Below the pieces are notes generated by a model. That model saw only the letters and a list, made by a program, of their open reading frames with translations. It was not told the DNA's origin and did no database searches. A DNA stretch of 64,000 nt from an uncultured Planctomycetales bacterium (GTDB lineage Bacteria > Omnitrophota > Gorgyraeia > Zapsychrales > JANLHA01). The first letter of the stretch is position 1. Each line of letters begins with the position of its first letter. The stretch covers positions 63,104 through 127,103 of the forward strand of contig CAZAXH010000003.1 of assembly GCA_964489065.1 (NCBI GenBank), in the 5' to 3' direction. The position numbers were made by a program, and so were the translations under genes. Shown here piece by piece: positions 3,001 to 26,612 of this stretch.

Positions 3001-3580
3001 CAACCTCAGCCAAGGAAGATGGAATTTTACTATACTCAAGAACATCTTTTAAAGCATAAACCCCGCAGTTAAACGGATGAATGTTTGGATCGCTCACCCA
3101 CGCCTTAACAGAATGGACATAATCCGGGGTAATTTTTCTTTTTGCGGAAATTAAAACACTATTTTCTTTAGAAACAGGACCCGAATCTCCCGAAGACAAA
3201 CCAAGCTTAATTTGGGCATTTTCTTTATTTTCAATTTGTTCCAAAAGATTAGCAACGCCAGAAGAAATCTGCGTCGCCATAATTTCTTCTTGAGAAATTT
3301 GAGGAGACTGCGAATCCAACGTCATTACTTGAACAGGAGCAGAAGTTGTTCCCCAAAGAACAGCAGGATTATAGTTAAAAGCCCAACTAACCTGCTCCGG
3401 GAGGAAAATTAAAACAACAAGAAGGGCTACCGTACGAATCCAAGACTTGAAACGACTCTTAAAAACTTCTTCTTTATATTCATTTTGGACAATATTTTTA
3501 GATGCAGCGCCTAACCCATTCTCTAATAATGCATTAGAGACAGTTCTGGCACCAAATTTTTTGTCCAATCTAAAATTCAT
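1..3580 (-). CDS. Giant membrane protein, partial (C-terminus lies beyond the window start): N-terminal signal/TM helix, papain-like peptidase C39-like domain, then a long Gly/Ala/Thr-rich polytopic region
   Basis: Minus-strand frame is open from the ATG at 3578-3580 to position 1; the ORF track lists no minus ORF here, consistent with a frame running off the edge. Hand translation: MNFRLDKKFGARTVSNALLENGLGAASKNIVQNEYKEEVFKSRFKSWIRTVALLVVLIFLPEQVSWAFNYNPA; Cys motif HPFNCGVYALKDVLEY; His/Asp motif EHFVTVTSVDAENVYFSDIGKQQSMPRNEFKEKISGFVLAV, matching the C39 CG..L / HFVV..DP pattern. Downstream region is Gly/Ala-rich with many hydrophobic helices (hand translation, unverified in detail). Confidence 0.55.
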   Translation of the reverse strand, partial: MNFRLDKKFGARTVSNALLENGLGAASKNIVQNEYKEEVFKSRFKSWIRTVALLVVLIFLPEQVSWAFNYNPAVLWGTTSAPVQVMTLDSQSPQISQEEIMATQISSGVANLLEQIENKENAQIKLGLSSGDSGPVSKENSVLISAKRKITPDYVHSVKAWVSDPNIHPFNCGVYALKDVLEYSKIPSSLAEVAVATLSVDLLNNIVEPGEKFLKTSLFAIEEVARGYGLNVQAVKVDTQDILYLNTPFIANFGSEHFVTVTSVDAENVYFSDIGKQQSMPRNEFKEKISGFVLAVNLDRQENMEYEPISDAMKAFVWGNKWVDRSDDLPGLLSGADVFAAVISMVVQIVIAYIMGGPLGVIISLASSTFGSAVGEAYYVNCVNDGGDDCESNAFILSTAITIAVSVGLNYMAGIGSEAGNAAGEAAAGGGKTALESTASSTATNSLSTALQNAAVGAAVGAALGWAVAKMTGKDATKAALIGGLIGAAGGLIAGYGGFGEGVQSAWQSLITKLQNIWNGIKGFFNKMFGGGAATTATSTTSTTSMTVSQRLWDIAKAFAKGFTVGMIKAYVQVKIAEFLEEHLDIDSEILKSVLVGLISSLAADIAVGVVAMGLDAAADALFKDAADGDSEGLGWREMLGMKDDSEASKQQYANQQVEKAQIQAKADGKGPLTGDQIAQVKADAMNSYSSFKLNLADMGMMALQRLAGGLGSYILRYIFKDKFDPSSMMSQILGNFGSLIGMTLFNVIAYGDTWGTTYDVKKEKDEEGNDIYTYKNVGTKENIKSTTTTTEEGQTVTNYYSGTHNVTMIDNDGDGTFEKAFVQGSFLGTIWRGAVQTLVSMLLALALFGKEDFSEAEGADGKTRDKDERAKQFWTCSLIFLGSVLTEGIFASIAGMFKTSDLAPIGTKAYEEQQKAGGKTDGTKKVDIGSIFLNVTGNAFQEFASNLVGDWVGTAPTGGKFANLSSFGTYVESMQKMGGITLDTVLKAQEKREELEEKREEAKEQMGGYNAPEEWYAWGWDDSMAIPDDLKEDAEKTDEDIAQEVGLQFLIMAEDNRVGFWVDNFSQVAAMSAITNFKGSFEYVASAISHDSGYIKFYRDFLGFTFRPIARDGSFLGKNYIQIKRKTIGEDFDPEKEATELVAKIEEAKEKGDIEADGTLLTIEMEADVESAEDVDALVSFMTLVEEKLSGT

Positions 3581-4224: not shown

Positions 4225-5112
4225 TTATTTTCCACCCAACTCGGACAACGGATTTTCTTCAATAAACTGAAGAAATATCGGTCCGGCAACAAGAATTCCG
4301 ACAACAGGAAAAATAAAGAACAAAAGCGGCACAAGCAATTTCATAGGAGCCTTCATCGCCATTTGTTCTCCTCTGCGGAACCTGGCAAGACGCATATCTT
4401 CAGACAAAAGATTTAAGGCCTCAGAAACCGAAGTCCCCATTTTGTCTGCCTGAAGAAGCGTTCTAGAGAAAGAAGAAACTTCCGGAAGGTCAAATTTTAC
4501 CGCCAAATCTTTTAAGGCATCCCGGCGGGTCTTTCCAACGTTAATTTCCTGAAGAAGAATATTCAACTCATTAATCATAACTGACGGCGTTGACTTCTCA
4601 ACAACCCATTTCAAAGCCAACATAAAGTCCAAACCGGCATTAACACAAAGCCCCAACAAATCAATAGCGTTCGGCAATTCTTTCACAATAACAGCTTTTA
4701 CTTTTTTAATTTTTCCTTTAAGCCAAAATTCCGGCATCATATAACCAATGGAAAGGCTCATAAAAAGCCAAAAAAGAATCATGTCCGGCTGAATCATTTG
4801 AAAAGTTAATAAAAGCACCAACATGATTCCGACTTCCTTCATTAAAAAAAACTCTTCCGGGGTTATATTCACATGCGCCACAGACAAATCTTTGGAAATT
4901 CTTTTCCGCAGCCCCCCTGAACACAATGGTTTATTAAACATGGCTAAGGCTCGCAATATGGACGTAGCGCTTTTTTTCTTCTTTGCCGGAGCTACTTCAT
5001 ATCCAAAAGCTTTCAATGTCGGCCTACTCTCCATTTCCACAGGAAAAAGCCCAACAACAAAACTAAATCCCGCCAAAAAACACATCGTTAAAATAAATGT
5101 CAGCATAAACAT
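4225..5112 (-). CDS. tadC: Tad pilus assembly inner-membrane protein TadC-like (T2SS F-domain family)
   Basis: 295 aa, polytopic; GspF/TadC-like stretch LGLCVNAGLDFMLALKWVVEKS...LLQADKMGTSVSEALNLLSEDMR; located next to the tadB-like gene. Confidence 0.7.
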   Translation of the reverse strand: MFMLTFILTMCFLAGFSFVVGLFPVEMESRPTLKAFGYEVAPAKKKKSATSILRALAMFNKPLCSGGLRKRISKDLSVAHVNITPEEFFLMKEVGIMLVLLLTFQMIQPDMILFWLFMSLSIGYMMPEFWLKGKIKKVKAVIVKELPNAIDLLGLCVNAGLDFMLALKWVVEKSTPSVMINELNILLQEINVGKTRRDALKDLAVKFDLPEVSSFSRTLLQADKMGTSVSEALNLLSEDMRLARFRRGEQMAMKAPMKLLVPLLFFIFPVVGILVAGPIFLQFIEENPLSELGGK

Positions 5113-5144
5113 AATAGAACCCTCTTCTTTAATTAGTCTTTTTA

Positions 5145-5999
5145 TTAAAAATCTTTAAAACTACTAATCTTCCAAATCATAAAGGCCCCTATAATTTCCG
5201 AAAAAACCGCATAAACAAGCATCCCTCTTCCTATCGTGGATTTAAACATATGATCAAAAAAGGTCGGATTTGTCCCATAAATAATCATAAAAAACATAAC
5301 GGGCAGAGCCGACATAACAACGCCTTGTATCTTCCCCTGAACAGTCAACGTATCTATCTGGGATTTGATTCTTTTTTGTTCACGAATAACATTCACAATA
5401 CGCTGAAAAATGCTGGGCAAGTTTCCTCCTGTTTCCCTGGCCAACAAAATAGCCGTTGTCATCTGCTGGACAGCAGGAGAAGGTTGCCGATTATAAAGGT
5501 GATTCAGGGCTTCGTCCAAAGAAACCCCCATATTATTTTCCCCTAAAACAATCGAAAATTCCTGATTTATAGGATCTGGCATTTCTTCCACAACCGCTTC
5601 CATAGCTTGAACCAAACTCAATCCTCCGCGGAAGGAACTGGACATAATCATAAGGGCATCTATCAACTGGTCATCGAATTTCCTCCTGTTTTGCCCTATA
5701 AGAAGGTTATTATAAACCCCAGGAAAAATTAAACCAAAAACCAAGCCGATTCCTATGCCAAAAAGCCGCAAGTCTTCCGGGAAAAACATATAACAGCCCC
5801 CGCCAAAAACAATAGGAGCGATAACATAAAATCGGGTAATTTTTTCGACTTTGGACCGAGGCAAAACCCTGTCCAACCGGGAAGAAAGCTTGTGCGCCCG
5901 TTTCTGTCCGACCTCCACCGATTTGTTATAAATCAATGGAATAACAAAATAGCCAAACATTGTGGCCGATATAAATATACAAAATAGAGAAACATACAT
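5145..5999 (-). CDS. tadB: Tad pilus assembly inner-membrane protein TadB-like (T2SS F-domain family)
   Basis: 284 aa, TM helices; GspF-like motifs DDQLIDALMIMSSSFRGGLSLVQAMEAV...ARETGGNLPSIFQRI. Confidence 0.7.
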   Translation of the reverse strand: MYVSLFCIFISATMFGYFVIPLIYNKSVEVGQKRAHKLSSRLDRVLPRSKVEKITRFYVIAPIVFGGGCYMFFPEDLRLFGIGIGLVFGLIFPGVYNNLLIGQNRRKFDDQLIDALMIMSSSFRGGLSLVQAMEAVVEEMPDPINQEFSIVLGENNMGVSLDEALNHLYNRQPSPAVQQMTTAILLARETGGNLPSIFQRIVNVIREQKRIKSQIDTLTVQGKIQGVVMSALPVMFFMIIYGTNPTFFDHMFKSTIGRGMLVYAVFSEIIGAFMIWKISSFKDF

Positions 6000-6023
6000 T
6001 ACCGAACCCCCTTCTTATCCCAG

Positions 6024-6464
6024 CTAATAATCAATAAGCTCTCTGCCTACATCCCTACAACGCGCCCCTGCTGCGGTTGATTCACTGCATCCTTCCAAAC
6101 ACTGCAGACACTGCGTGATGTACCCTGTTGTTCCTGGCGGCAGAGTACAGTCGCATGGCGCCGCATCGTAACAATCGCGTGAAATCCACCGGTTAATTAA
6201 CGTACACGGCCGTGTCGGGCCTGTTCCCGAGGTGCAATGCGTGGCATCAAAAAAACACTCTAACGTCCCGCCTCCGTCTCCATAATTCCCAAAAGGCCGG
6301 GGATCATACTGACGTCCCGCGCCAAAAGAATCTCCGGCCTTTTTCCAACTGCCATAATAAGCCCTTAAAATATAACCTTGAAAAACAAATAAGCTAGAAA
6401 GAAGAAAAACAATCAAGGTCATATACTCTAATATAGATTGGGCATGCTTCTTGTGCCGCAACAT
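6024..6464 (-). CDS. Cys-rich Flp/TadE-family prepilin-like protein (146 aa)
   Basis: N-terminus MLRHKKHAQSILEYMTLIVFLLSSLFVF has a class-III (Flp-type) signal, but with Ala rather than Gly before QSILEY; C-terminal part contains 10 Cys. Confidence 0.5.
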   Translation of the reverse strand: MLRHKKHAQSILEYMTLIVFLLSSLFVFQGYILRAYYGSWKKAGDSFGAGRQYDPRPFGNYGDGGGTLECFFDATHCTSGTGPTRPCTLINRWISRDCYDAAPCDCTLPPGTTGYITQCLQCLEGCSESTAAGARCRDVGRELIDY

Positions 6465-6496
6465 GTTTTTCCTTTTAAAACAAACAGTTACAATGC

Positions 6497-9400
6497 TTAG
6501 TTCAGCCCATTAAGAAAATTTTCGTCACACTCCACAAAACGAACCCGAAAGCCTTTATCTCCGCTATAGCCGGAACCGCCTCCCAAAAAATATTGCGCGC
6601 AGGTTGCCGTTGAATATCCGTATCTTAATAAACTTTCATGAATAAAATTCCAGCAATCCAAATACTCCGCCGAACCTCTCGGAGGCGTGGCGCTGGCTGT
6701 GGGTGTTTGGTTAATCATAAACGCATTTCTCCACCCCCATTCCCAGGTTTGGGCCGCGATATTGGGGTCAATCATAATAGCGCAAGTGACCTCCAAATCC
6801 GTCGGGTCCTGATCTGACCCTTCCGGATGATAATATTGCGGTTTCCATAAAAGGGTGCCATCCGGAAAACGTATTTTACTACCAACCGTGTCTTCATCAT
6901 AACGGATCACCCGGGCCTTAACACGGCCTGTCATCTCCTTCAATTCATAACAACGTTTCATCCCCCAACTTTTTGTATAGGTATCAATATACGGCCACCG
7001 ATCTGTTCCACATGCGCTGTTGCACCGCCCGGGAGTTCGCACCTCCACCTTAACAACATGCCAGTCTCCCCGGATTGTATTATAAACATCTTTGGGTTCG
7101 TCCTGCCAAGCATAAATGGCAAAAGACGTGGTGGCCGGAGGATAAATATTCCCCCAAGATTTACAGGCGTCAATAAGACCTTGAGCCGGACCGGAAAGAA
7201 AAGCATCAATATGGCTAAGCCCGTTCCATAATATATTTCTTATCTGAATCGCTTCTTCCTCGCGTCCTGCGAGCATTTCCCAACGCTTTGCCATTTTCAT
7301 TGACTGGTTCGCCGCAGCCAAAACACTCTGGTCTAATAAGTCTTTCCATTCTCCGGGGTCGGTTTCACCGCACGACCCAATGTTAGTATCCAATGCTGTT
7401 TCAATGGCATCAAAGAACGGGGTTGCGCCGACGCCGCAAAGCTGGCCACAGGTCCCCAAAAGATCTGTCGGCAACCCATACCAGGTACAAGAACAATTCA
7501 ATGCGTCGGATAAAACCGTGGGGCTGTCACAATCAATAGTTGTTGCCTGATCCCGGCATTGGTTCGGGAGGTTTAACGTTGGGTTAGCATTGCAAAAAGC
7601 ATACATAGCTCTTAAATTTGTTAACAGAGATGTATCTGGGGCAGGCAAAGTGGCGTTGTCAGATGTGGGAACAAAAGCAGGAATCCCGTACCCGCCAGGC
7701 AACGAAGAACAATCATCATTGCAGGTTGGAATAGACTCTGTACCCAAGCACAAAGTTAACGCGATCAAATCCGCCTCGGGCATAGGAATCGTGAACCGTA
7801 AGGCATCAAACCCAGGGACAAGCGACCTGGGCAATATCGCGCAACTGTGGCCGGAATTCATAGGATCGTTGTCACAATCCCACTTACACGCATCAAATTT
7901 CTCAAAATTTCCCACCGCCTGGGAACCAGTTACAGGATAAATAATCGGATTCCCGGATGCATCCTGCGCCAGATCATGAAGATTCCATTCCAGACAAGCA
8001 ATAACATCCTCTAAGTCGCCCCGGCCATCCCCGCTAACATCAAAAGACGCCTGTTCTTCCTGGCTTACCCCGGGACACTCCAAACCGTTATATCCTGACT
8101 GAAAACCCAGATATGCGGGATCCGCATATTTATTAGCAGCAACCTGCGGGGGCGGAACACACCAAACCGCCGGGTCAACCGCCGCACTATTGATAAAACA
8201 CCCGGAACCAACATAAAGATCCGCGTCGGGAGGATTCAGCCAGGCCCCAATTGGAATATAAAAAGAAGCCAAATCTTCGCGCCAAATATACCAGTATCCG
8301 CCATCCACATCCCCGGTGCAGCTCCCCGGACAATCCGCAGCATTCCCGCTCGGGCACGGCGTTTCAATCCAGGTCGCGGCTTCCTCGTACCACTCATCGA
8401 AATGGGATTCCAGGTAGTCCTTATCTTTATCCATAACTCCCGTCGCCCACTCATAAAATTCCGGCAACCCATAAATAAATTCATCTAATTTATCATCGGG
8501 CCAATTTGTGGACACATATTCAAAATTATTTGCTGCCTGCGTCCTGTCTATGGGCGGCGTCGGCGGTAAGGCCCCGCCTGTCCCGCAATCACAATCAATC
8601 GGCCAGGTTGTCCCTGTTTCTGGGTCCACTTCCACGCAAGGAGGAGATCCTCCGGGAGGGGCGCCGGCTTTTCTGCATTCGGCCATATAAGGCCATTCAT
8701 CCGGCGGATCACAGAATTGATCGCCACCTCTTTTCCAACCGCCTTCATCCTGCGCGCAAACAGCGTCGTCGGCCAAAATAGCATCAATGTTCGGCACCAA
8801 ATCCAGTAGCTGCGGTGGATCTCCGTCCGCCCCGGTGTTTGCGGCATCCACACACCAACCGCCGCTATACAAGGCATTATCTGGCGTCTCAGGAAGCTCA
8901 AGCGCGGTGCCAATCTCCGCCGGATAAGAAGTTATTCCGGCACAAACAGCCGGGACTGTTCCTGCGGCAACACCATCCACATCACATAAATGACACTCCA
9001 AATTGTCCCGGGCCGGGTGAATATCAGGAGGATCAGGAAGCAACGCGCCATAAGTTAACGACTGTAAATCCATGCCCCAATCCGCCAATTTATAAAAAAA
9101 CGGAAAAATACCAGGCTTATCGTCGGCAGAATAATAACCGGTTGCGTCTTCCATATAGAAATCATATTCCAAAGCGCCGGAACGGATCAGCTGAGAGTGG
9201 TCCAGGGTCGCCCCGGTGCCATCAATCAAATAATTCCAATTCGGCCTGGCTGGATTAACTGCATATTGATGATGTTCGTCGTCAAAACCAAACCATTCAC
9301 GAAATGAAATGTTGGCCGGATCCCAAGCGCCGGCATTTTTATTATTCGTGGAATCTTCGTTCATCCCTCTAAAAATATACGGATAAGACAACAAAGCATT

Positions 9401-10546
9401 AGGCGCGGCCGGAGGAAGAGGCGTGTGATATGGGCTTCGTTGATTACAAGTGGCAGGATTCCCTCCGGGAAAGCCCTCCTCCTCCACGCAAGTTCCCGTG
9501 CCACAACAAGCGGGACGAACAGAAGCATCGACACAACAGGGATCACACATAGAAGGAAAACGCATATCCCCGACAGGGTTGGACGGGCAACATGGATGCC
9601 CGGGGTTACGCTGACAATCAATGGGATCAACAAGACCCCAATCATCGGTGTCACACCCCCAATCCGTACAGATATCGGGGTTACCTCCATACAAGAAATC
9701 CGTAAGCGCGGATAAGAATTCGTCAAGGATTGATAAATTTAAATCCGGGATACCCTGAAGCCGACGGGTATAATAATAGGCAAAACGGGAAATATAATCC
9801 GGACCCGAGGCTTTATCATTAGGATCAGCCAAATTGCCAAAGGCGCTGTCGGTATCAAAGTCGAATAAATCCGGTATTTGAGCGGGGTCATTCACGGCCG
9901 TCATCAAAGCACTTTGTACCCCCAACTCCACAGCCATTTCTTTCGGCCCCAGGGAATCTCCCATCATTTTATTCCACATGGACGTTATGCCAGGCTGGGT
10001 TATCGTTACATCAATCACAGCAGCGGCCACGACAAGCACCGCGGCAACAATCGCGGCGGCCAAACCCCAGCCTTCACATTGATATGTCGCCGCACAAATA
10101 ACGACAAGAACCACGACAACAATGGCCGCAATGAGTTTGACCAAAAATCCGGTCCAGGCACAAATCTTCGTTTCTCCATCCAAAGAGGTCATAAACAGCA
10201 TCTGACCATAACTGGCAATAAAAGACGCCATTTTAGAGGCCGCCGTGTTAGCGGCAATGATTGTCAGGGTTTTGCCGTGAGAAATTCTGCCAATATTAAC
10301 CGTGACCGCATATAAAATCAATCCTATCGCCGCGGCTAAAATCAGAATTAAGCCAACCTGTCCGGCAATGTGTCTGGAAGGAATGGTTGGAGTAGTTAAG
10401 GAAGCGCCTTCCTCTTTGGGAGCCAAGAAAAAAGCATTCCATTTTTTCCTTTGCCATTTCCTCGCCTTTCTCACTCCTTTATATAAAAAATGCAACAAGT
10501 TGGCCCCCGGGGTAAAAATGTTAAGATTAAGGCGTTTCCTCTCCAA
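6497..10546 (-). CDS. Giant (1349 aa) Cys/Asp/Pro-rich, probably extracellular protein with N-terminal TM helices; candidate pilus-associated adhesin or tip protein
   Basis: Uninterrupted ORF; hydrophobic N-terminal segments (LILILAAAIGLILYAV, LIAAIVVVVLVVICAATY, AAAIVAAVLVVAAAVI), then Cys-rich stretches (CTDWGCDTDDWGLVDPIDCQRNPGHPCCPSNPVGDMRFPSMCDPCCVDASVRPACCGTGTCVEE) and many DP/DxD motifs; start overlaps the upstream TadE-like gene by about 20 nt (operon-like). Confidence 0.6.
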   Translation of the reverse strand: MERKRLNLNIFTPGANLLHFLYKGVRKARKWQRKKWNAFFLAPKEEGASLTTPTIPSRHIAGQVGLILILAAAIGLILYAVTVNIGRISHGKTLTIIAANTAASKMASFIASYGQMLFMTSLDGETKICAWTGFLVKLIAAIVVVVLVVICAATYQCEGWGLAAAIVAAVLVVAAAVIDVTITQPGITSMWNKMMGDSLGPKEMAVELGVQSALMTAVNDPAQIPDLFDFDTDSAFGNLADPNDKASGPDYISRFAYYYTRRLQGIPDLNLSILDEFLSALTDFLYGGNPDICTDWGCDTDDWGLVDPIDCQRNPGHPCCPSNPVGDMRFPSMCDPCCVDASVRPACCGTGTCVEEEGFPGGNPATCNQRSPYHTPLPPAAPNALLSYPYIFRGMNEDSTNNKNAGAWDPANISFREWFGFDDEHHQYAVNPARPNWNYLIDGTGATLDHSQLIRSGALEYDFYMEDATGYYSADDKPGIFPFFYKLADWGMDLQSLTYGALLPDPPDIHPARDNLECHLCDVDGVAAGTVPAVCAGITSYPAEIGTALELPETPDNALYSGGWCVDAANTGADGDPPQLLDLVPNIDAILADDAVCAQDEGGWKRGGDQFCDPPDEWPYMAECRKAGAPPGGSPPCVEVDPETGTTWPIDCDCGTGGALPPTPPIDRTQAANNFEYVSTNWPDDKLDEFIYGLPEFYEWATGVMDKDKDYLESHFDEWYEEAATWIETPCPSGNAADCPGSCTGDVDGGYWYIWREDLASFYIPIGAWLNPPDADLYVGSGCFINSAAVDPAVWCVPPPQVAANKYADPAYLGFQSGYNGLECPGVSQEEQASFDVSGDGRGDLEDVIACLEWNLHDLAQDASGNPIIYPVTGSQAVGNFEKFDACKWDCDNDPMNSGHSCAILPRSLVPGFDALRFTIPMPEADLIALTLCLGTESIPTCNDDCSSLPGGYGIPAFVPTSDNATLPAPDTSLLTNLRAMYAFCNANPTLNLPNQCRDQATTIDCDSPTVLSDALNCSCTWYGLPTDLLGTCGQLCGVGATPFFDAIETALDTNIGSCGETDPGEWKDLLDQSVLAAANQSMKMAKRWEMLAGREEEAIQIRNILWNGLSHIDAFLSGPAQGLIDACKSWGNIYPPATTSFAIYAWQDEPKDVYNTIRGDWHVVKVEVRTPGRCNSACGTDRWPYIDTYTKSWGMKRCYELKEMTGRVKARVIRYDEDTVGSKIRFPDGTLLWKPQYYHPEGSDQDPTDLEVTCAIMIDPNIAAQTWEWGWRNAFMINQTPTASATPPRGSAEYLDCWNFIHESLLRYGYSTATCAQYFLGGGSGYSGDKGFRVRFVECDENFLNGLN

Positions 10547-10823
10547 AAATATTGCTATTAACTGTCGCGTTTATTTTTGTAATCGAATAAAACATCGGCC
10601 GGACCTGTTCTAACGGACCCGCTGGCTGAGACGTGCTTATAGGAGAAACTAACAAGGCATCGTGAGAATTAAAACGCTTCATCAAATCAGTCCCTGTCCA
10701 GGCAAAGACCTGAATCATGCCAACGACAAGCAAAACAACCCCGATCATCCCGAACATAAATTCTAAAGACACTTGTCCCGGGCGAATATTTTTTTTAAAT
10801 CTAGTCTTTCCGTTTTTTTTCAT
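10527..10823 (-). CDS. tadE: TadE-like pseudopilin (Flp-family N-terminus G/QVSLEF)
   Basis: MKKNGKTRFKKNIRPGQVSLEFMFGMIGVVLLVVGMIQVFAW; start at the second Met (10823) is supported by GAGGGG placed 7 nt upstream; the ORF track start 10838 lacks an RBS. Confidence 0.6.
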   Translation of the reverse strand: MKKNGKTRFKKNIRPGQVSLEFMFGMIGVVLLVVGMIQVFAWTGTDLMKRFNSHDALLVSPISTSQPAGPLEQVRPMFYSITKINATVNSNIFGEETP

Positions 10824-10843
10824 AACGATTCCCCTCATTCTTA

Positions 10844-12559
10844 TTACGGGGCATATCTTCTAATCCAGCGCCTCCCTCTTAGATCGGCAATCCGGCTTCT
10901 CACAAATAACATTAAATTATCCCGGTCAAAACACGTCAATTGTGCGACCCCCGCCATATAACAATTTGTTCCTGTGCTTGGCCGGGTACAAACCTCAACC
11001 GGATTGGGGATTCCGTAAACGCCGTTAGCGCTCGCCCAAGCGGAAGTTCCCCATTCTCGGGGATTCACGTCATCCGCACAAAACCGACCGGTGTCTCTTG
11101 TCAACTGAACTTGTCGCTCAATCACATCTAATTGATCATGCCGTTCCGTGCTTCGGGTATATTGCGACGTATTAGCCGTAAAAATAGGGCCTTCTTCCGT
11201 CCTAAAATAGGTCCCCTGGCCTGTTTCCTGGCCTGGATCAGATTCTGTAAATGTATATACCTGTGCGCCTTCTGAAAAACCAACCGTGCGGGCGAGACAT
11301 TTATAATTTGAACAGACGCCCAAAGTGTTGTTTCCGGTCGTCGTTGATCCAATAACACAATTCCCTGTCGGGGTGGCGCCGCAAGCCCCGCCTATGGTTC
11401 CGGCAAAACGCCATTCCCCTGCCTGGCGGGCATCGGACATAAAAGAGCTGGACATGTCGCCTTCTTCGCTGTCAATTACGTTCACGGTTTGAAGCACTCC
11501 GGACCCCAAGGCTGAATAACTCAGGATGGACTCTTCATAATAATCCCCATCAACATCAACGCTTTCATTCTTCGAGGACTTTTCTCCGCTGGGATCAACA
11601 AAAATTCCCGGCACCCCGCTCCACGGCAAAGTCATCGCTGTTCCATCGACGACTCCGGCTACTAAAAACCACTGCCAAAACTGAATATCCCGGCTCCCGG
11701 CCGGGACATCAGGCACGCCATCAAAATCATAATCAAAGCGGATATCTTGAGGAAGATTGTTACAATTTTTAACACATGTTGTCCCGAAACAGCATGTTTT
11801 ACTTTTGGGATAATTCCCTGAAATGGTAAACAGCAACGTGCAACCTGCGGAGTTCGTTACTAAATCATATTCTCCTGTGCCGGTCCCTCCGGTCGCATAA
11901 ACACATTCCCCCATATAACCTAATTCATAATCTCCGCCATAGCCCACATAAACACAGCTTGAATAACTAACACAACTATTCCACCAACACAGCCCATAAG
12001 GAGGGCTTGCTGGCGGGGCGTTGGAATTAAAATACGCCGGAGCCGAGCCGTTACACGCGGGGATCCAAGATGGCCGGCTTCCGTCAGAATTCGCCAGAGT
12101 AACCGATTTAAAATCCGCGCCCAATAACGGAAAACGTTGCCCATTGATATAAACATCCGAAAGAGGAAGATCCCTTCGATCTCCAAAATCTGTCGGCCGG
12201 AACAAATTTTTTGTCATGGAAGCACTGGCGCTGGCTGTCATAGGGAACCTGTCCCGGGATCCAAATTTTTTACCAGCATCAACATTCAATCTGTCTTCCA
12301 AAATAACAATAGAGGCTACATTCCGGGAATTGGCTCCCTCGTCACCGGCAAAACCAATATATTCACCTTCAGAAGTCCGGTAAGACTCACTCAAAGCAAG
12401 ACGTAAAGCCCGTAATTGCATATTATTAAGCATGCTGGCCTGCATTCCAGATTTAATAATAGAGCCAATGATAAAAATAAGCATGGCCCCAAAAATAGCC
12501 AGTTCCGTTCCTGACTGCCCCAACCGAGAAACTCGAAATGTCCGCGACTCTCGTTTCAT
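10844..12559 (-). CDS. tadG: TadG-like large pseudopilin: TadE-type N-terminus (RLGQSGTELAIFGAMLIFIIGSII) followed by a large Cys/Gly/Thr-rich domain (571 aa)
   Basis: Class-III signal G/QSGTELAI; C-terminal region rich in Cys (CWWNSCVSYSSCVYVGYGG...KTCCFGTTCVKNCNN). Confidence 0.6.
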   Translation of the reverse strand: MKRESRTFRVSRLGQSGTELAIFGAMLIFIIGSIIKSGMQASMLNNMQLRALRLALSESYRTSEGEYIGFAGDEGANSRNVASIVILEDRLNVDAGKKFGSRDRFPMTASASASMTKNLFRPTDFGDRRDLPLSDVYINGQRFPLLGADFKSVTLANSDGSRPSWIPACNGSAPAYFNSNAPPASPPYGLCWWNSCVSYSSCVYVGYGGDYELGYMGECVYATGGTGTGEYDLVTNSAGCTLLFTISGNYPKSKTCCFGTTCVKNCNNLPQDIRFDYDFDGVPDVPAGSRDIQFWQWFLVAGVVDGTAMTLPWSGVPGIFVDPSGEKSSKNESVDVDGDYYEESILSYSALGSGVLQTVNVIDSEEGDMSSSFMSDARQAGEWRFAGTIGGACGATPTGNCVIGSTTTGNNTLGVCSNYKCLARTVGFSEGAQVYTFTESDPGQETGQGTYFRTEEGPIFTANTSQYTRSTERHDQLDVIERQVQLTRDTGRFCADDVNPREWGTSAWASANGVYGIPNPVEVCTRPSTGTNCYMAGVAQLTCFDRDNLMLFVRSRIADLRGRRWIRRYAP

Positions 12560-12579
12560 AGCGTAAAAATTACGGCGTA

Positions 12580-12888
12580 TTAATATGCGGCAACTCTTGA
12601 TGCCCCGTATTTCTCCTCAGTCATATTGGAATCATCATCCCGCATCGTCCACACCCCGGCATTCACCGGAATTGTGGTAATACGTGTAGAAGAAAATCCG
12701 CTGGTTCGTTCGGTAATATCTGTATTGGTCACCCTAGGGTCATATTGGTCTCCCATCCCGTCAACGGATTCCTTCCACCGCCCCTGAACCCCCCGCTTAA
12801 AATATGTGCCCATCCCCAGGAATACTCCCAAAATAATCGTAATCAGCGTCACATATTCCAAGGTGCTTTGTCCGCGTAATAACCTCAT
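12580..12888 (-). CDS. flp: Flp-family prepilin paralog 7 (102 aa, extended C-terminus)
   Basis: MRLLRGQSTLEYVTLITIILGVFLGMG: G/QSTLEY processing motif plus hydrophobic helix. Confidence 0.7.
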   Translation of the reverse strand: MRLLRGQSTLEYVTLITIILGVFLGMGTYFKRGVQGRWKESVDGMGDQYDPRVTNTDITERTSGFSSTRITTIPVNAGVWTMRDDDSNMTEEKYGASRVAAY

Positions 12889-12915
12889 ACTCCCTACCCT
12901 CTTTTTTAAAACTTT

Positions 12916-13254
12916 TTAATTATCTCTATACTGAAACCCCAGATTGGTCGTTGTCGTCGTGACCATTTGCGAATACGAACCATCATAATCAAGCCGCGTT
13001 TCCCCAAAATCTTCCCTTAACCTTTTAACAGAAGCTTGCTCCGTATCAACAATCTGTTCGACCAAATGGCCGTCGAGACCTCCGGGCTGCTCCGCCCCGG
13101 ATTGATTGCCGACCTGATCAGAAACAACCCTGACCATCCCCTGCACCGCTCGTCTCAACATGGGGGTGAGAGAAATCAAGACCGCCACTACGACACTAAC
13201 TAGCATAGCATACTCTAAAAATGTTTGCGCAGAATTTTTATGTTTTCTTCTCAT
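12916..13254 (-). CDS. flp: Flp-family prepilin paralog 6 (112 aa)
   Basis: KNSAQTFLEYAMLVSVVVAVLISL (A/QTFLEY); Thr-rich C-terminus. Confidence 0.65.
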   Translation of the reverse strand: MRRKHKNSAQTFLEYAMLVSVVVAVLISLTPMLRRAVQGMVRVVSDQVGNQSGAEQPGGLDGHLVEQIVDTEQASVKRLREDFGETRLDYDGSYSQMVTTTTTNLGFQYRDN

Positions 13255-13271
13255 TTTTTATTAAAAAAGCC

Positions 13272-13628
13272 TTAATCGGCCAGCGCCGGCGGTAACTGTG
13301 TTTGATTTGTGATTGCACTGATTTGATGTTCGTAAAGCTGTTCGACAATACCTGAGCCTAAAGGAAAAGCCCCTTCTTCTGTCATGGTCGTTGTCGTGTC
13401 CGTGTATCTTGTCGTCATTGAATTGCTATAATACGGCTCATATTGATAGTAAAAAGTTCCCGTATAATCATCCTGTACTGTGCTGGCCATATAATGCAAC
13501 GCATCTCTCGTTCTTCCCTGCAACAAACGTCGGACATAAGTTCCCATGACCGAAATAATTGACACAACCACAAAAAATGTCGTAGCGTATTCAACAAAAG
13601 AGTTTTGACCTTTTTTATTAAGCTTCAT
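13272..13628 (-). CDS. flp: Flp-family prepilin paralog 5 (118 aa)
   Basis: MKLNKKGQNSFVEYATTFFVVVSIISV; C-terminal QYEPYY motif shared with paralog 3. Confidence 0.7.
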   Translation of the reverse strand: MKLNKKGQNSFVEYATTFFVVVSIISVMGTYVRRLLQGRTRDALHYMASTVQDDYTGTFYYQYEPYYSNSMTTRYTDTTTTMTEEGAFPLGSGIVEQLYEHQISAITNQTQLPPALAD

Positions 13629-13750
13629 ATATATTATTTAATGTTCAAACTGATTATAAATAAAGTATGGCTTACCCGAAAGTTGTTTTCCCCCTCAAGT
13701 AAGCCACACTTTATTTAGCTTAAGTCATTCTGGTTATTTAATAAACAAAA

Positions 13751-14071
13751 TTAACCCCAGAACTCCTGTTCAGCATTAATGATAACCTGGTTCTGCAATG
13801 TCTCGGTAACTTCATCCGTATTCAATGTCGTGGTAGAAACACCATAGCCGAATGTTTCAGCCGTGTTACTAACAGTGGTTACAACGCGACGGATGTTCGA
13901 GTTGCCCGGTGAATATTGATCACCGATATCGTCTGTTGCACTCTTTAATCTACCCTGCACACCTCTTTTGATGTAAACTTGGATAGATAAAAGAGCACCG
14001 ATGACGATGATAATCAAGACGGCGTACTCTAAAGTACTTTGCCCTTTTATTTTTCTTAGAAACTTAAACAT
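13751..14071 (-). CDS. flp: Flp-family prepilin paralog 4 (106 aa)
   Basis: KIKGQSTLEYAVLIIIVIGALLSI; GGGAGG RBS immediately upstream of the start. Confidence 0.7.
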   Translation of the reverse strand: MFKFLRKIKGQSTLEYAVLIIIVIGALLSIQVYIKRGVQGRLKSATDDIGDQYSPGNSNIRRVVTTVSNTAETFGYGVSTTTLNTDEVTETLQNQVIINAEQEFWG

Positions 14072-14125
14072 TGAAAATTCCTCCCTATAAAATTCAGATT
14101 TTCGTTACACTAAGTTATCTGGATC

Positions 14126-14500
14126 TTAGATACCATTAATTACACCAAAATTGGTGTCATAGTTTGATCTCTGAAAACCGCCATCAGCACGGGTTCTGTT
14201 GCTGGTGGTATCTAACTGGAACAACCCAGAGGAGTCTGCTCTCATGCCCTGTACTTCTTCTTCCCTGTCATCACGCAGGACATTGTAATCAGATTCCAGA
14301 TAATAAGGTTCATACTGGTTGGTTCTACCCAAGGCGCTTGTGGAATCTGTCAAATAAGCAGAAGCGTCACGAATTCTCGCCTGAATGGTTCGTTGCGCAT
14401 AAGTTTGCATAGCAATGACCGCCGCGACAACAAGGGAAATTAACAGCGCGTATTCGGCTGTTTGCTGTGCTTTTTTATTTTTAATTAACTTTCTAAACAT
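14126..14500 (-). CDS. flp: Flp-family prepilin paralog 3 (124 aa)
   Basis: KNKKAQQTAEYALLISLVVAAVIAM; C-terminal NQYEPYY motif. Confidence 0.65.
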   Translation of the reverse strand: MFRKLIKNKKAQQTAEYALLISLVVAAVIAMQTYAQRTIQARIRDASAYLTDSTSALGRTNQYEPYYLESDYNVLRDDREEEVQGMRADSSGLFQLDTTSNRTRADGGFQRSNYDTNFGVINGI

Positions 14501-14539
14501 TTATGTTTCCTCCATTTACTTTTGTCTCTTGATAATTAA

Positions 14540-14746
14540 TTACGGATTATCATAACGAGATGTTTGTAACCGATTGGCCATATCAAACATGCCATTCGTA
14601 CCCGTACGCAAGGTTGAATTAAACGCTTGGTTAAAAATACCATTAGTCGGGTTTAAGAAAATAATCAGAATGGCAATAACACCTGTCACCAAAATAATAT
14701 ACTCGAGGGTGCTTTGCCCTTTCTTTTTTCTGTTCTTGTATACCAT
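14540..14746 (-). CDS. flp: Flp-family prepilin paralog 2 (68 aa)
   Basis: MVYKNRKKKGQSTLEYIILVTGVIAILIIF; AGGAGG RBS upstream. Confidence 0.75.
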   Translation of the reverse strand: MVYKNRKKKGQSTLEYIILVTGVIAILIIFLNPTNGIFNQAFNSTLRTGTNGMFDMANRLQTSRYDNP

Positions 14747-14811
14747 TAGTAATTCCTCCTATAGTTTGATCCACACCACTCAAAGCTAGGCGGGTTTTCC
14801 CTCCCGCCACT

Positions 14812-14961
14812 TTAATCTTTGAATCCTTCTGAAATCACCTGCTGTGTTGCCTGAATTGATCTAAACACGTAGGTGCTCATGGCAAGCATGGCTGACGCGA
14901 CTAAGGCCACGACGATGGCATATTCTACTATGTTTTGTCCTTTTTCTTGTTTCCATGGATT
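14812..14961 (-). CDS. flp: Flp-family prepilin paralog 1 (about 50 aa; start taken at an internal Met with a strong RBS)
   Basis: MGHNPWKQEKGQNIVEYAIVVALVASAMLAM; GGAGGTGA 8 nt upstream of the ATG at 14961; the longer ORF to 15036 has no RBS. Confidence 0.7.
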   Translation of the reverse strand, partial: NPWKQEKGQNIVEYAIVVALVASAMLAMSTYVFRSIQATQQVISEGFKD

Positions 14962-15167
14962 ATGCCCCATCGCGCCTTCACCTCCGTGCCCACAGATGAT
15001 TCGTACCCAACTCTTGCAACCTAAGAGTGGATTCACTCCGGGCTATATTACCGGATATTTCCGGTATCCTCCAGATTTGGGTCAAAAAACATAACAAAAA
15101 TCTGGAGGATTAAACCCCCGACAAAAGGGGTAAAAAGCTAATTTTAAAATTATGAAAGAGCTAAAAC

Positions 15168-15210
15168 AGAAACGGTTTCTTTATAAACTTAAAGAAACCG
15201 TTTTTAAAAA
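15168..15210 (-). terminator. Perfect 15-bp inverted repeat (GAAACGGTTTCTTTA ... TAAAGAAACCGTTTC) with flanking T/A runs; putative terminator after the 570-aa gene, or an operator upstream of the pilin array
   Basis: Direct reading of the palindrome between the stop of the 570-aa gene and the first flp gene. Confidence 0.35.
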
Positions 15211-15375
15211 AGCGCAGACAACACCTGTCGCTTTTAGATATCTTAAAATAATCTGGAAGAAAACTCTAAAATTTTTTGTCATATTATGACCTATCATTTG
15301 TTTTCCCAGCGATGAATGAAGTATATCATAATATATTACAAAATGTCAAGGATTGAATCTTGGGGCGAAAAGGGA

Positions 15376-17088
15376 TTATTGTCGACGGGAAAAAATTTTC
15401 ATCATCAATTTTTTTCCATGAAAAGTCACGATGTTTCTTTCATTAATTCGCGTCACGGCTGACTTCAGCTCCTCAAAACAGGCATAATCATTACCGGGGA
15501 TGAGCAGAACTTGCATCGCCTCGGGATGAGCCGAAATAGTTCCCGAAAGAGGAAGAATTATGTCCTTCAAATGCACCGGAAGTAGGCTTGTTTTCCCGGA
15601 AGAAAAATAGGTTTGCCAAGCATAATGTGCTAAAAATTCAGAAAAAATTTTTTTAATATTAATATTTCTATTAATATTATATTTATTTCCTTGAAATAGC
15701 AGGAATTGAGAATCTTTGGCCTTGACTTTTCCAACAGAATAATTAAATCCTCGTTGAAAATTAGGCCAACGACGATAGTATGTCTTTATTACATCACTGG
15801 CATGATACAAATTATTCGGAGCATTGGTTAATATGACAGCAAAAGGACTTGCCGTCGGATTTTCTTTTAACGGAAAAACACGTAACCCCAATCTTGGTTG
15901 AAAATCATCATCAAAAGGAAGCGTTGTTAAAGTTTCAAAAAAATACACGCAATCCTCGAAAAACGGATCAACAAATTTTTCTAATTTATTGCTTCGCAAG
16001 GATTTCAGCAAAGGATAAAACTCTGGTTGCCAAGGCCACAAACATGTAATGAAATATCTTTTTTTAGGGGGAATATAATCAAAACAGGCGACTTCATTCC
16101 TTTCTACATCTAACAGAGAAACCTGAATAATTTTTTTCCCTTCCTTATTATCAAAAGCCCCGCATAGATCTAAAAACTGCCGGGCACAATATGCGTGTTG
16201 AGATAAATTTTCTTTGATGTTTAAGATTGGACAAAAACAAAAAACAACAGGTTGGACATTACTGATTATCTCTTCAGAAATTGTTTTGGTACACTGTGTT
16301 ATGGTATTAAAAAATGGCAAATCTGAATCTTTTGTCCAAACTGAACTCATTTCCGCATCTAAAAACAAATTTTCACCATTCTCTAATTTCAACTGAACAA
16401 AAAACACCTGCGTCATGTAATATTGCAAATTTATCATGAACTTCAACACAATTTCTTCCCAATTTTCCATGCTGCTTAATTCTGACAATAATCCTTCTGC
16501 ATTAAAGCCCCTCTTGTCACTTTGAGAAAGGCCTTTTATCCAAAGCCCTTCAGAAATTTCATTTTTTTCAAAAATTTCCATATAAAGCAATTTTTCAACC
16601 AAGCTGTTAATTTGAATGTCTTCTAAAAACGAAAACCTTTCGGAAAAAATCTCTGCCAAAAAAGGTTCCCGGAAAAGCTCCCATTCTGCCGCTTTTATAA
16701 ACATATAACCAACATCTGGAATAACCTGACAATCTTTTTTTGACGTATCAATGTTTGGGAAGGAGGCTTCTTTTTGAATAGCCGTTTTTACTTCCAAAAG
16801 ATCTTTGGGGCATGTTTGCAAAGTTGACTTATTTATTAATGCTTTTCTGGCCCTTTTTCTAGGTGCCAAAGGTTTTTTTTCTAAAGGTGCGTTTAAAGTT
16901 CTTCTTCCTACCGGACTGTTAAGGTTAGCTTCTTTCAAAACAGCGCTAATGGAAGATTTAGATAATTTAATTACAAATTTTTTATAAACCAAATCGGAAA
17001 GCTTTCGGCAGCTTAAGGCCGGACTCGCGGCTTTTTCAGCCACAATAAAATCAATGACCTCTTCTGTAAGTTTATATACGACACCCAT
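15376..17088 (-). CDS. Hypothetical protein (570 aa) with an N-terminal HTH-like region; AT-rich gene interrupting the Tad locus
   Basis: Long ORF; N-terminus LTEEVIDFIVAEKAASPALSCRKLSDLVYKKFVIKLSKSSISAVLKE resembles an HTH; the rest could not be assigned; composition is visibly more AT-rich than neighbouring genes. Confidence 0.5.
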   Translation of the reverse strand: MGVVYKLTEEVIDFIVAEKAASPALSCRKLSDLVYKKFVIKLSKSSISAVLKEANLNSPVGRRTLNAPLEKKPLAPRKRARKALINKSTLQTCPKDLLEVKTAIQKEASFPNIDTSKKDCQVIPDVGYMFIKAAEWELFREPFLAEIFSERFSFLEDIQINSLVEKLLYMEIFEKNEISEGLWIKGLSQSDKRGFNAEGLLSELSSMENWEEIVLKFMINLQYYMTQVFFVQLKLENGENLFLDAEMSSVWTKDSDLPFFNTITQCTKTISEEIISNVQPVVFCFCPILNIKENLSQHAYCARQFLDLCGAFDNKEGKKIIQVSLLDVERNEVACFDYIPPKKRYFITCLWPWQPEFYPLLKSLRSNKLEKFVDPFFEDCVYFFETLTTLPFDDDFQPRLGLRVFPLKENPTASPFAVILTNAPNNLYHASDVIKTYYRRWPNFQRGFNYSVGKVKAKDSQFLLFQGNKYNINRNINIKKIFSEFLAHYAWQTYFSSGKTSLLPVHLKDIILPLSGTISAHPEAMQVLLIPGNDYACFEELKSAVTRINERNIVTFHGKKLMMKIFSRRQ

Positions 17089-17386
17089 AAAAGGAAGAAA
17101 AAAGATTGGACATTAATACAAATAGTATAACATAATCATTAACAAAACAAAGAACTATTGTCCAAAACAAAAAAAATAAATCAGCTGATCGCTAGACAAC
17201 GCATCCGTCTTGGCAAAAGAGAATTTTTACATAATAAAAAATTCAACAAATATTGGTCAAACAGGCAAAACATATATATAATTTATCAGGCTGCCTTTAT
17301 GTCTGGGGGATCAAAAATCAGATAAAAATTAAAAGCCTTCGCTCACACAAGACAAATTAAACCTTAAGTTCACCAGTAAAATTCTT

Positions 17387-17629
17387 ATGATCAAATGTCC
17401 CTACTGTTACGAAATGCTTCCTTCGACAGAAAATCTACGTTGTCCACATTGTTTACAATTTATCATTGATTCGGCAATAACCACAGACTTCCCTAGTCTT
17501 GATAAAAAACACTGTCTTTTTTGTGGGAAAAAAATATTATTGGAAGCTAAAATTTGCCGGCATTGTAAACGCTGGCTTGACGAAATCGAACAGGCCGCCA
17601 GAGATATCGATCCAGAAGACCTGGTTTAA
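17387..17629 (+). CDS. Small zinc-ribbon protein (four CxxC pairs)
   Basis: MIKCPYCYEM...CPHC...CLFCGKK...CRHCKRW; 80 aa. Confidence 0.45.
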   Translation: MIKCPYCYEMLPSTENLRCPHCLQFIIDSAITTDFPSLDKKHCLFCGKKILLEAKICRHCKRWLDEIEQAARDIDPEDLV

Positions 17630-17997
17630 CAGAACTCATTCGGATTTGGCTTTTCCTCCTCCAAGAGAAGGGCGTCTCCTTTTTCTGTTCGAGAAGAATC
17701 AATCACCCCAACGGGTAATTCTATTGCTTTTTTGGCCCGGAAAAAATACGGGCTTATTTGGAAGGGTTTAATATTTCTGACCAATCCTAAAACCTTATTA
17801 TTTTTATTAACAAAAATAACATCTATGGCAAAACGCATAAAAAGCATATGGATTTGCCGGCACTCTGTAATCACCAACCCTTCTTCTGGAGACAGGGATC
17901 CACGGTTAAGAAGGCCAACCAAACGAGATACAACCGTATCGGCTAACTGAGCCCGTTCGGCAATAAGTGTACCTTTTGTTTGATTAGTGATACGCAC
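17626..17997 (-). CDS. DUF192 family protein
   Basis: LIAERAQLADTVVSRLVGLLNRGSLSPEEGLVITECRQIHMLFMRFAIDVIFVNKNNKVLGLVRNIKPF matches the DUF192 pattern (GLm.r...G..l......iHm.fM.f.iDviF.d....v). Confidence 0.6.
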   Translation of the reverse strand: MRITNQTKGTLIAERAQLADTVVSRLVGLLNRGSLSPEEGLVITECRQIHMLFMRFAIDVIFVNKNNKVLGLVRNIKPFQISPYFFRAKKAIELPVGVIDSSRTEKGDALLLEEEKPNPNEFC

Positions 17998-20159: not shown

Positions 20160-20356
20160 AGTCTTGTAAAATATAATTATGCTGTCGATTTTTAAAAATG
20201 TACTTTTAACTAATAGTTTTTAGTATACAAACGAAACATGCTTTTGGCAAGAATTCTTTGGAAGGAAATCAACACATCCCCCGCTGAAGAATGGCAAAAA
20301 AAGAATGCGGGTTTCTTCAACGGGGGATGTGTATTTTGTTTACAAAAACTACAAAT

Positions 20357-22363: not shown

Positions 22364-22448
22364 ACAATCACTCCCTTGCCATCAGAATAATTTATCCGAA
22401 AAACCCCTCTAAGCTCAAATCATCGGGATGCTCTAAAATACCGACGTT

Positions 22449-23252: not shown

Positions 23253-23256
23253 TTGC

Positions 23257-24264: not shown

Positions 24265-24388
24265 ATCTCCTCCTTAAGTTACTATGTTACAAATGTAAGT
24301 ATACCCTTTGAAATATCAAAAAACAAGCGCAAAGCCAATTTTTTTATTAATTAATTTTATTTATTTAATATTTATATTAATATTAATT

Positions 24389-25381: not shown

Positions 25382-25407
25382 TTGTTTTTATAAAACAACA
25401 TAAACTA

Positions 25408-26229: not shown

Positions 26230-26585
26230 TCCCCCGCGCTTTCTAATAGCATTTTTTGTTGATAAAAAACCCTATCTCCCGACGAGTTTAGGACGCATAA
26301 ACACAAGACGGCTCGTCCTTAAAGGCCGGTTTTTTTTCAAAGAAATAAACTGGATATTCCAGACAGCCTTGCTTAAATTCACCGGGAAAAAATATTCATC
26401 GATTCGGCGCAGCTTTAAGGGCTTTCCCATAGCATAAATATATAAGATGTTTAATTGCTTGAACATCTTTTTTTAGATTTTCTAACCGACCACGTTTGTA
26501 AGAAAGAATAGGCGGGAGACAACAATCAACAAAAAGTTCTGCAAGGCAGCTAATTTTGTAAAAAATGGAAGGTGCGGCCCCGAAG

Positions 26586-26612
26586 ATTAAAACGGGGCCT
26601 TCTCGGCCCCAT
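26586..26612 (-). terminator. Rho-independent terminator downstream of tRNA-Glu
   Basis: Minus-strand reading GGGGCCGAGAAGGCCCC followed by GTTTTAATCTT. Confidence 0.45.

Follow-up and report, generated by a model that had tools for sequence, protein, structure and literature searches.

Here, we present a computational analysis of four consecutive genes, which we name D, C, B and A, in a 64,000-nt stretch of DNA (contig CAZAXH010000003.1 of assembly GCA_964489065.1, positions 63,104-127,103; hereafter, the window). We conclude that these genes probably encode the minor-pilin tip and initiation module of a Tad-type (type IVc) filament machine specific to Omnitrophota. By analogy, this module is best read as a diverged and greatly enlarged counterpart of the TadE/TadF/TadG (KilL/M/N, CpaJ/K/L) tip-initiation complex. 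The locus has been published already; what is new is the conserved, phylum-specific variant of a Tad tip module inside it. All four open reading frames (ORFs) lie on the minus strand and have the coordinates given in a preliminary description of the window made from its sequence. They are part of one long co-oriented Tad-type locus, in which they are located between seven genes for Flp-like pilins and the genes for TadB and TadC, and Pfam searches placed the TadA ATPase, TadB/TadC, the RcpA secretin and RcpC on the same strand (4225-23252). The preliminary description had suggested that the products are extracytoplasmic, disulfide-stabilized minor pilins or tip proteins, and this is the best-supported reading because of their prepilin motifs, the topology with a leader and a helix, the conserved and even-numbered Cys residues, the faster divergence, the fixed position of the genes and the match to TadE/F/G tips. 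That description missed the main context, i.e. an Omnitrophota locus fixed beside a giant gene.

Every pilin-like protein of the locus begins with a basic leader followed by Gly or Ala, Gln and a hydrophobic stretch. The analysis covered a locus scan with one genome per species, which gave 38 loci, an ORF-by-ORF comparison of 40 related loci, and orthologue alignments that comprised 37 sequences for C and 38 for A. The Flp/TadE-type prepilin motif ([GA]-Q-x3-E) was found in D, C and A, with Glu at +5 in 34/35, 35/35 and 23/24 orthologues, respectively. Residue +6 is Leu in 32/35 D orthologues, Phe in 27/35 C orthologues and mostly Tyr (16/24) in A. In the window, the motifs read LG/QSGTEL in D, PG/QVSLEF in C and HA/QSILEY in A (the slash marks the presumed cleavage site). 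Among the Flp-like ORFs of the related loci, short and mid-size pooled, Glu+5 is present in 177 of 207 and Tyr+6 in 170 of 207. The Flp/TadE-type N-termini originally assigned to D, C and A are, therefore, present and conserved across orthologues.

B lacks this form of the motif. Gly-Gln is kept in 35 of 36 orthologues; however, residue +5 is Ile or Val in 34/36 and never Glu, while residue +6 is Leu, Ile or Met. B had been described as a protein with an N-terminal transmembrane (TM) helix; its N-terminus is hydrophobic, but B is not merely TM-anchored because it has a pilin-like basic leader and the G/Q junction. In Caulobacter crescentus, the large minor pilin CpaL, similarly to GspK, has no docking residue and was modelled as the first subunit atop CpaJ/CpaK (bioRxiv 10.1101/2025.02.12.637803). 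The features that define this type of subunit in that preprint were found in B, i.e. the Gly at −1, the Ile/Val at +5 and the location of the gene between those for C and A. Because B has neither Glu+5 nor Tyr+6 for docking onto a preceding subunit, we suggest that it would be the first and tip-most subunit. Near its N-terminus, B has three hydrophobic segments, and there is none beyond residue ~190 (~1,150 residues). The putative mature N-terminus consists of a ~25-residue hydrophobic helix, a ~40-residue amphipathic stretch and a ~55-residue second hydrophobic block, which has a Pro/Gly-rich centre and is conserved in 31/34 orthologues; this block is followed by a ~1,160-aa ectodomain rich in Cys, Asp, Pro and Gly. 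B orthologues have about 1,100-1,600 aa and 32-64 Cys. Conservation along B is fairly even and peaks at the pilin-like N-terminus and at residues 1050-1250, while residues 950-1050 are poorly conserved and there are several insertion hot spots.

The preliminary description ascribed Cys-rich C-terminal regions to all four proteins. This applies to D, B and A, which in the window have 18 (3.2%), 54 (4.0%) and 10 (6.8%) Cys, respectively, compared with 0.1-1.0% in six other window proteins (TadB, TadC, TadZ-TadA, the secretin, GyrA and GyrB), but not to C, which has no Cys in the window and 0-2 in most of 36 orthologues (3-9 in a few). Of the 54 Cys of B, 31 are conserved in ≥80% of 37 species at an overall identity of ~39%; D has four invariant and A seven to eight conserved Cys. 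Most orthologues have an even number of Cys (28/37 for B, 29/36 for D and 33/38 for A). Because Cys residues are conserved despite low identity and occur mostly in even numbers, their enrichment is not a compositional accident. Full-length D orthologues vary between 398 and 709 aa with 6-30 Cys, and the most variable part of the whole module is a Cys-rich insertion in D (residues ~160-270, CWWNSC...CCFGTTCVKNC), which is found in the clade of the window and is absent or much shorter in distant orthologues.

Of the B orthologues, 34/40 contain calcium-loop-like motifs of the type Dx[DN]x[DN]G, as do 19/36 of the D orthologues; A, C and the core proteins of the cytoplasm and membrane have none. 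D of the window has DYDFDG at residue 276 and a VDVDGDYYEE acidic loop, and the D family has an invariant D-x-D-x-D...E block; B of the window has DFDTDS and thus falls outside the strict motif. At the level of such motifs, B and D may possibly bind calcium. Of the proposal of disulfide-stabilized and perhaps calcium-binding domains, the first part agrees with the conserved, even-numbered Cys, while the second is suggested by these short motifs. We rejected intracellular, metallothionein-like proteins because the topology (a basic leader followed by a hydrophobic helix at the N-terminus) and the surrounding locus argue against them.

The segment FQxYIxRGxxGRWKxxGD..GRxYDP is common to A and the mid-size Flp paralogues of the locus, and A has, in addition, a C-terminal knot of ~8 Cys; because of this common segment, we consider A an Flp derivative with an added Cys knot. 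The presence of a 1349-aa protein among pseudopilins had been thought unusual; however, large proteins also accompany minor pilins elsewhere (TadG/CpaL/KilN in Tad systems and, in type IVa operons, PilY1). What is unusual about B is its size, its Cys content, the second hydrophobic block and the lack of a recognizable domain. In type IVa operons (FimU-PilVWX-PilY1-PilE), PilY1 is a calcium-binding protein of >1,000 aa encoded among minor pilin genes; this PilY1/PilC-type tip adhesin is not a pilin, starts with an ordinary signal peptide and ends in a beta-propeller. By contrast, B has a pilin-like leader, matched no PilY1 family in Pfam and gave no propeller in fold searches.

The order of genes in the locus is fixed: TadZ-TadA, DUF192, a ~570-aa protein, the Flp-like proteins (one or two short, five or six mid-size; 0 Cys), D, C, B, A, TadB and TadC. 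The order within the module, with 6-10 Flp genes ahead of D and TadB and TadC after A, is conserved in ~38 Omnitrophota species, and B is located between C and A in all loci. Median identities to the window are 71% for TadZ-TadA, 68% for TadC, 60% for TadB and 59-63% for two of the Flp paralogues, while they are 40% for D, 41% for C, 39% for B and 44% for A. Thus, D, C, B and A diverge faster than the core machinery, as expected of exposed parts. The D profile matches 651 representatives of clusters at 50% identity, of which 328 have E≤1e-30. Homologues with a named source are labelled Candidatus Omnitrophota or Omnitrophica. Fifteen contigs of metagenome-assembled genomes (MAGs) that carry the locus are titled 'uncultured Planctomycetales/Planctomycetia bacterium'. 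Because identities to the window equal those of Omnitrophota-labelled MAGs (for TadZ-TadA, 76% in L011 and L012, which have a Planctomycetales-type label, vs 77% in L028, which has an Omnitrophota label), these fifteen labels are probably wrong.

In 22 of the 25 loci with at least 2.8 kb of sequence downstream of TadC, the frame that follows encodes an N-terminus homologous to that of the window's giant protein (E 1e-80 to 0) and runs off the fetched DNA; the conserved part comprises the N-terminal ~700 residues, and the called giant products in two loci have 13,548 and 76,285 aa. Such a strict linkage of the module to giant genes is unusual. In the literature, giant proteins have been described as poorly conserved overall, and a 2026 preprint reported that 13 of 14 giants are flanked by pilus or secretion genes. 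This linkage also agrees with an alternative, which we regard as unlikely, in which D-C-B-A is the counterpart of GspH-I-J-K in a short periplasmic pseudopilus, similar to that of a type II secretion system (T2SS), with B as a GspK-like cap that pushes or presents a substrate through the secretin. The obvious candidate substrate would be the giant protein or fragments released by its C39 peptidase domain. In T2SS, at least four minor (pseudo)pilins prime assembly, and the largest tip subunit, GspK, has no Glu5; similarly, the module has four pilin-like proteins of which the largest is without Glu+5. West-Roberts et al. (2023; bioRxiv 10.1101/2023.11.21.568195) described a secretion system of >10 subunits upstream of Omnitrophota giant genes, labelled it 'type II secretion system-like' and proposed a role in secretion. 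As described there, the locus has gspD/E/F-like genes, rcpC, a Rotamase_2 peptidyl-prolyl isomerase, many small genes with class III signals and a giant gene with an N-terminal C39 domain. It is the same locus as the one analyzed here; as far as we have read it, the preprint does not take apart the large unannotated genes and does not describe the D-C-B-A module, the prepilin motifs, the Glu-less B or the conservation of Cys. By contrast to a T2SS, the machinery is of the Tad type (a TadZ-TadA fusion, two TadB/C-type platform proteins, RcpC and Flp-type short pilins), and GspC/L/M were not detected in our searches. Moreover, the motif here is Q+1...E+5-Y/F+6 (G/QxxxE[YF]), i.e. Flp/class III-like and not of the GspG-K type, there was no match to a pseudopilin family in Pfam or NCBIfam, and the seven genes for Flp-like pilins suggest a real fibre. 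Finally, the giant proteins have many TM segments according to that preprint, arguing that they are unlikely to be secreted as folded substrates by a piston.

The closest parallel to a tip module is provided by the Kil system of Myxococcus xanthus, in which the TadE/F/G homologues KilL/M/N form heterotrimeric tips that were modelled with many disulfides (Herrou et al. 2025, PMC12075869). In the spearhead model of these tips, KilN/TadG is the backbone, KilM is short, KilL is extended, and the base is a bundle of N-terminal helices; small Flp adapter pilins, KilK/KilO, join the tip to the shaft, and the tips are required for predation and contact-dependent killing (PMC12075869). As in Kil, a short, an extended and a large minor pilin are encoded together with a Tad-type machine, all of them start with a prepilin leader followed by a hydrophobic helix, there are extra small Flp-like pilins, and many disulfides are predicted; the lifestyle, predatory in Myxococcus and reported to be predatory or parasitic in Omnitrophota, is also similar. 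Similarly, CpaL is encoded with CpaJ/CpaK and TadG of A. actinomycetemcomitans with TadE/TadF, i.e. a large minor-pilin-like protein with two small pseudopilins. The differences from Kil are, however, substantial. The module has no detectable sequence or profile similarity to the TadE/F/G families; B has 1,110-1,600 aa, 32-64 Cys and the second hydrophobic block; and there are a fourth pilin with a Cys knot (A) and five conserved mid-size Flp paralogues. While Kil has several interchangeable tips, each locus examined here has a single conserved module in which the B ectodomain is not hypervariable, and the Omnitrophota module is linked to the giant gene. Compared with CpaL (~626 aa, vWA/MIDAS), B is twice as long and Cys-rich, has no vWA match and has the extra hydrophobic, hairpin-like block. 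Among the papers searched, none joins Omnitrophota with minor pilin, pseudopilin, TadE or TadG.

Several observations weigh against a tip module. Sequence and profile searches gave no significant link of A-D to TadE, TadF, TadG/Tad, Flp or any other family. Specifically, searches of Pfam and NCBIfam with A-D, with 17 members of the B family and 16 of the D family and with N-terminal fragments at E≤10 gave nothing significant. A, B and D did not match PF04964 Flp_Fap, PF07811 TadE, PF16964 TadF or PF04021 Class_IIIsignal, and C matched Class_IIIsignal weakly (E=0.05, 14 bits vs a cutoff of 23.7); the closest approach to a curated family in the locus was that of the 52-aa short Flp pilin to Flp_Fap, which is under the cutoff. 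Neither the PF13400 Tad/TadG N-terminal region (Pfam) nor a vWA/MIDAS domain (Pfam and, for vWA, fold searches) was found in B. In hhalign, only the G/A-Q motif aligned between the B and D profiles, at a probability of 0.3%, and a hidden Markov model of the B N-terminus had no match among the ORFs of two proteobacterial plasmid tad loci. The B and D alignment profiles gave only noise against all PDB sequences (E≥0.18), and a repeat database search with the B alignment added no proteins to the first 17. AlphaFold2 models, built from alignments of 16-17 sequences and of mediocre confidence, have a helix at residues 11-63 (~50 residues) followed by a beta-rich domain in D (predicted local distance difference test score [pLDDT] 62.5), while residues 189-1349 of B (pLDDT 62.1) were modelled best in the C-terminal third. 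Fold searches with these models gave helix matches only and did not establish a pilin fold. No match to Peptidase_A24, the family of TadV/CpaA-type prepilin peptidases, was detected among the ~40 ORFs of the window that were scanned; the gene may lie elsewhere in the genome. In B, the second hydrophobic block looks like a TM hairpin, which would hinder extraction into a fibre and would fit a membrane-resident protein better; the ectodomain is evenly conserved across the phylum and not hypervariable, unlike the picture of an adaptable tip; and this ~125-kDa ectodomain would have to pass the secretin.

These properties of B suggest an alternative in which only C, D and A are minor pilins, while B is a periplasmic scaffold or anchor with three passes through the inner membrane, connecting, e.g., the platform to RcpC and the secretin, or to the giant protein. 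The block is of sufficient length to form a helical hairpin that turns at Pro/Gly, and the lack of Glu+5 also agrees with this idea. However, a plain anchor would need neither a prepilin-like basic leader nor a near-invariant Gly-Gln at the presumed cleavage site of its neighbours, and the gene is placed among those for minor pilins. Moreover, tip-most subunits are known for lacking Glu+5, and fibre preparations have been reported to contain TadG (bioRxiv 10.1101/2025.02.12.637803). On balance, we consider this scaffold quite unlikely.

The preliminary description had also pointed to adhesin, lectin or cadherin folds; neither these nor any other known fold was detected in Pfam, by PDB profiles or in fold searches. 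It is conceivable, albeit very improbable, that the Cys-rich proteins are effectors or binding proteins displayed on the surface, for which the class III signal would serve solely as an anchor or export tag, as in the sugar-binding proteins of the archaeal 'bindosome', and that they have no role in a filament. Large non-pilin ectodomains after a class III-type signal and the weak Class_IIIsignal matches would agree with this, as would carbohydrate uptake genes reported near giant genes by West-Roberts et al. (bioRxiv 10.1101/2023.11.21.568195). On the other hand, we detected no binding-protein or enzyme domain, the short C has essentially no ectodomain to display, and a fixed set of four genes with one Glu-less member fits an initiation complex better. 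Minor pilins are needed for priming, while displayed cargo is not.

Returning to a tip and initiation module, we suggest the following model. Based on the topology predicted from sequence, all four proteins would be inserted in the inner membrane via the basic leader and the hydrophobic N-terminal helix, with the remaining part outside the cytoplasm, and a prepilin peptidase would cut after the conserved Gly/Ala ahead of Gln+1. By analogy, C would be the short TadE/KilM/CpaJ-like, D the extended TadF/KilL/CpaK-like and B the large TadG/KilN/CpaL-like subunit. The N-terminal helices of C, D and B would bundle on the TadB/TadC platform and prime the polymerization of Flp pilins, and the far end of the fibre would consist of the ~125-kDa ectodomain of B and the globular domains of D and A, all of which are probably stapled by disulfides and may bind calcium. 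A, as well as the five mid-size Flp-like paralogues, could function as adapter or low-abundance pilins between tip and shaft. Because a predatory or parasitic lifestyle has been reported for the lineage and the module has a fixed place beside the gene for a giant surface protein, we speculate that the fibre most likely mediates contact to host or prey cells or acts together with the giant protein. Consistently, the Tad loci of Omnitrophota have been tied to predation or parasitism (Seymour et al. 2023, PMC10066038).

A bolder version of this model, which we think doubtful at best, is that D-C-B-A forms a disulfide-stapled 'harpoon' of >200 kDa at the tip of the Tad fibre that is coupled to the giant protein, and that the hairpin of B inserts into the target membrane. 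According to this idea, the hairpin would be buried in the core of the fibre until contact, and the tip could dock or guide the giant protein onto the surface of the prey. If true, ultra-small predators or parasites would possess a contact-dependent attack device of a new class, built from domains without a known fold.

The four genes are intact. B has 17 database homologues, most with 95-99% coverage, and D has 15; public records list these proteins only as 'hypothetical protein'. We rejected pseudogenes or frameshifts because full-length homologues are conserved and the gene order is kept in 38 genome loci. Public gene callers start C at ATG 10823 (98 aa), which is preceded by the Shine-Dalgarno (SD) sequence GAGGGG, and B at TTG 10498 (1333 aa); starting C at ATG 10838 would give 103 aa. 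With the public starts, the junctions are gaps of 20, 28, 32 and 24 nt, and a purine-rich, SD-like motif is located ahead of each gene. The tight overlaps reported previously depend on the choice of start, with the 20-nt overlap arising only from the B start at TTG 10546, and co-translation is not supported by these junctions, which are short gaps and not overlaps.

Table 1. Genes of the Tad-type locus in the window
Feature	Position	Strand	Basis and remarks
Peptidyl-prolyl isomerase	23257-24264	-	Pfam; Rotamase_2-type counterpart in published locus
RcpC/CpaB	22449-23252	-	Pfam
RcpA/CpaC-type secretin with C-terminal TonB_C domain	20357-22363	-	PF03544, E=1.5e-14
TadZ-TadA fusion ATPase, 720 aa	17997-20159	-	Pfam; ParA/MinD-like AAA_31 + T2SSE
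DUF192 (PRK03760-like), directly after tadA	17626-17997	-	DUF192-like
570-aa protein	15376-17088	-	ORF between DUF192 gene and first pilin gene
Short Flp pilin, 52 aa	14812-14970	-	KG/QNIVEY; PF04964 Flp_Fap E=4e-6, 26.9 bits (curated cutoff 32.2)
Short Flp pilin, 68 aa	14540-14746	-	KG/QSTLEY; ORF and motif
Five mid-size Flp-like pilin paralogues, 102-124 aa, 0 Cys	14126-14500, 13751-14071, 13272-13628, 12916-13254, 12580-12888	-	G/QSTLEY-type motifs
D, 571 aa	10844-12559	-	ORF; leader, G/QSGTE-L, long N-terminal helix, beta-rich Cys-containing domain
C, 98 aa	10527-10823	-	ORF; short TadE-like minor pilin, G/QVSLE-F
B, 1333 aa (1349 aa from TTG 10546)	6497-10498 (10546)	-	ORF; large, minor-pilin-like, G/QVGLIL
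A, 146 aa	6024-6464	-	ORF; Flp-derived minor pilin, A/QSILE-Y
TadB	5145-5999	-	Directly downstream of A; PF00482 T2SSF (TadB/TadC E=1e-17 and 5e-14)
TadC	4225-5112	-	PF00482 T2SSF; position kept in related loci
Giant gene, 5' end	1-3580	-	1,198-codon open frame to window edge; TM segment; Peptidase_C39 PF03412 E=4.6e-10

The two short Flp pilins are candidates for the major pilin. None of the seven Flp-like pilins has Cys, and all have Gln at +1 (QSTLEY-type), a feature seen more typically in archaeal class III signals than in Flp of proteobacteria. Most species have a separate orthologue for each of the mid-size Flp paralogues (at ~60% identity for two of these), so that the paralogues look like distinct pilins kept as a set and not like recent duplicates. 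Upstream of these genes, the fusion of TadZ to TadA and the position of the DUF192 gene after tadA are kept in nearly all related loci that reach far enough upstream, and TonB_C is an unusual fusion partner for a secretin. The 570-aa protein has no TM segment and a weak HTH_32-like N-terminus (E=0.019); it is encoded at the same position in 27 of 38 non-duplicate related loci, and we therefore rejected an insertion element, while it is the fastest-evolving protein of the locus (median identity 29%). Just ahead of the first pilin gene (15104-15349), TTGACA-18-TATACT with an extended −10 TG (11/12) is the region's best sigma-70-like match; it is followed in the leader by two terminator-like hairpins (15203-15170 and 15119-15104), which may represent a regulated 5' leader. 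Another terminator-like hairpin is located between TadC and the giant gene (3789-3762). ORF lists that drop frames without a stop in the window miss the giant gene, and the first ~4 kb therefore looked empty.

Further along the window (24389-39222), dnaA (33328-34668), dnaN, gyrB and gyrA are on the minus strand and yidC, parA and parB on the plus strand, and an AT-rich zone and the minimum of the cumulative GC skew are found near 34 kb. Based on these origin genes and the skew minimum, the Tad/giant-gene locus lies within ~10 kb of the replication origin. The coordinates of the Tad locus of Velamenicoccus (12382-29832; Seymour et al. 2023, PMC10066038) suggest the same placement near the origin.

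Omnitrophota are widespread, mostly ultra-small and uncultured, and thought to be predators or parasites; genomic hints at the way they attack hosts come mainly from the Tad-like locus and the giant genes next to it. Our analysis proposes a role for four of the largest 'hypothetical' genes of this locus, i.e. a tip-initiation complex with a Glu-less first subunit, and defines two sizeable uncharacterized families, D with at least 328 clusters at 50% identity and B with members in at least 38 species. The module occurs together with the Tad core and the conserved N-terminal part of the giant protein. Altogether, motifs and synteny allow us to extend the recent idea that predators customize their Tad tips, as a well-defined hypothesis, to a distant phylum.

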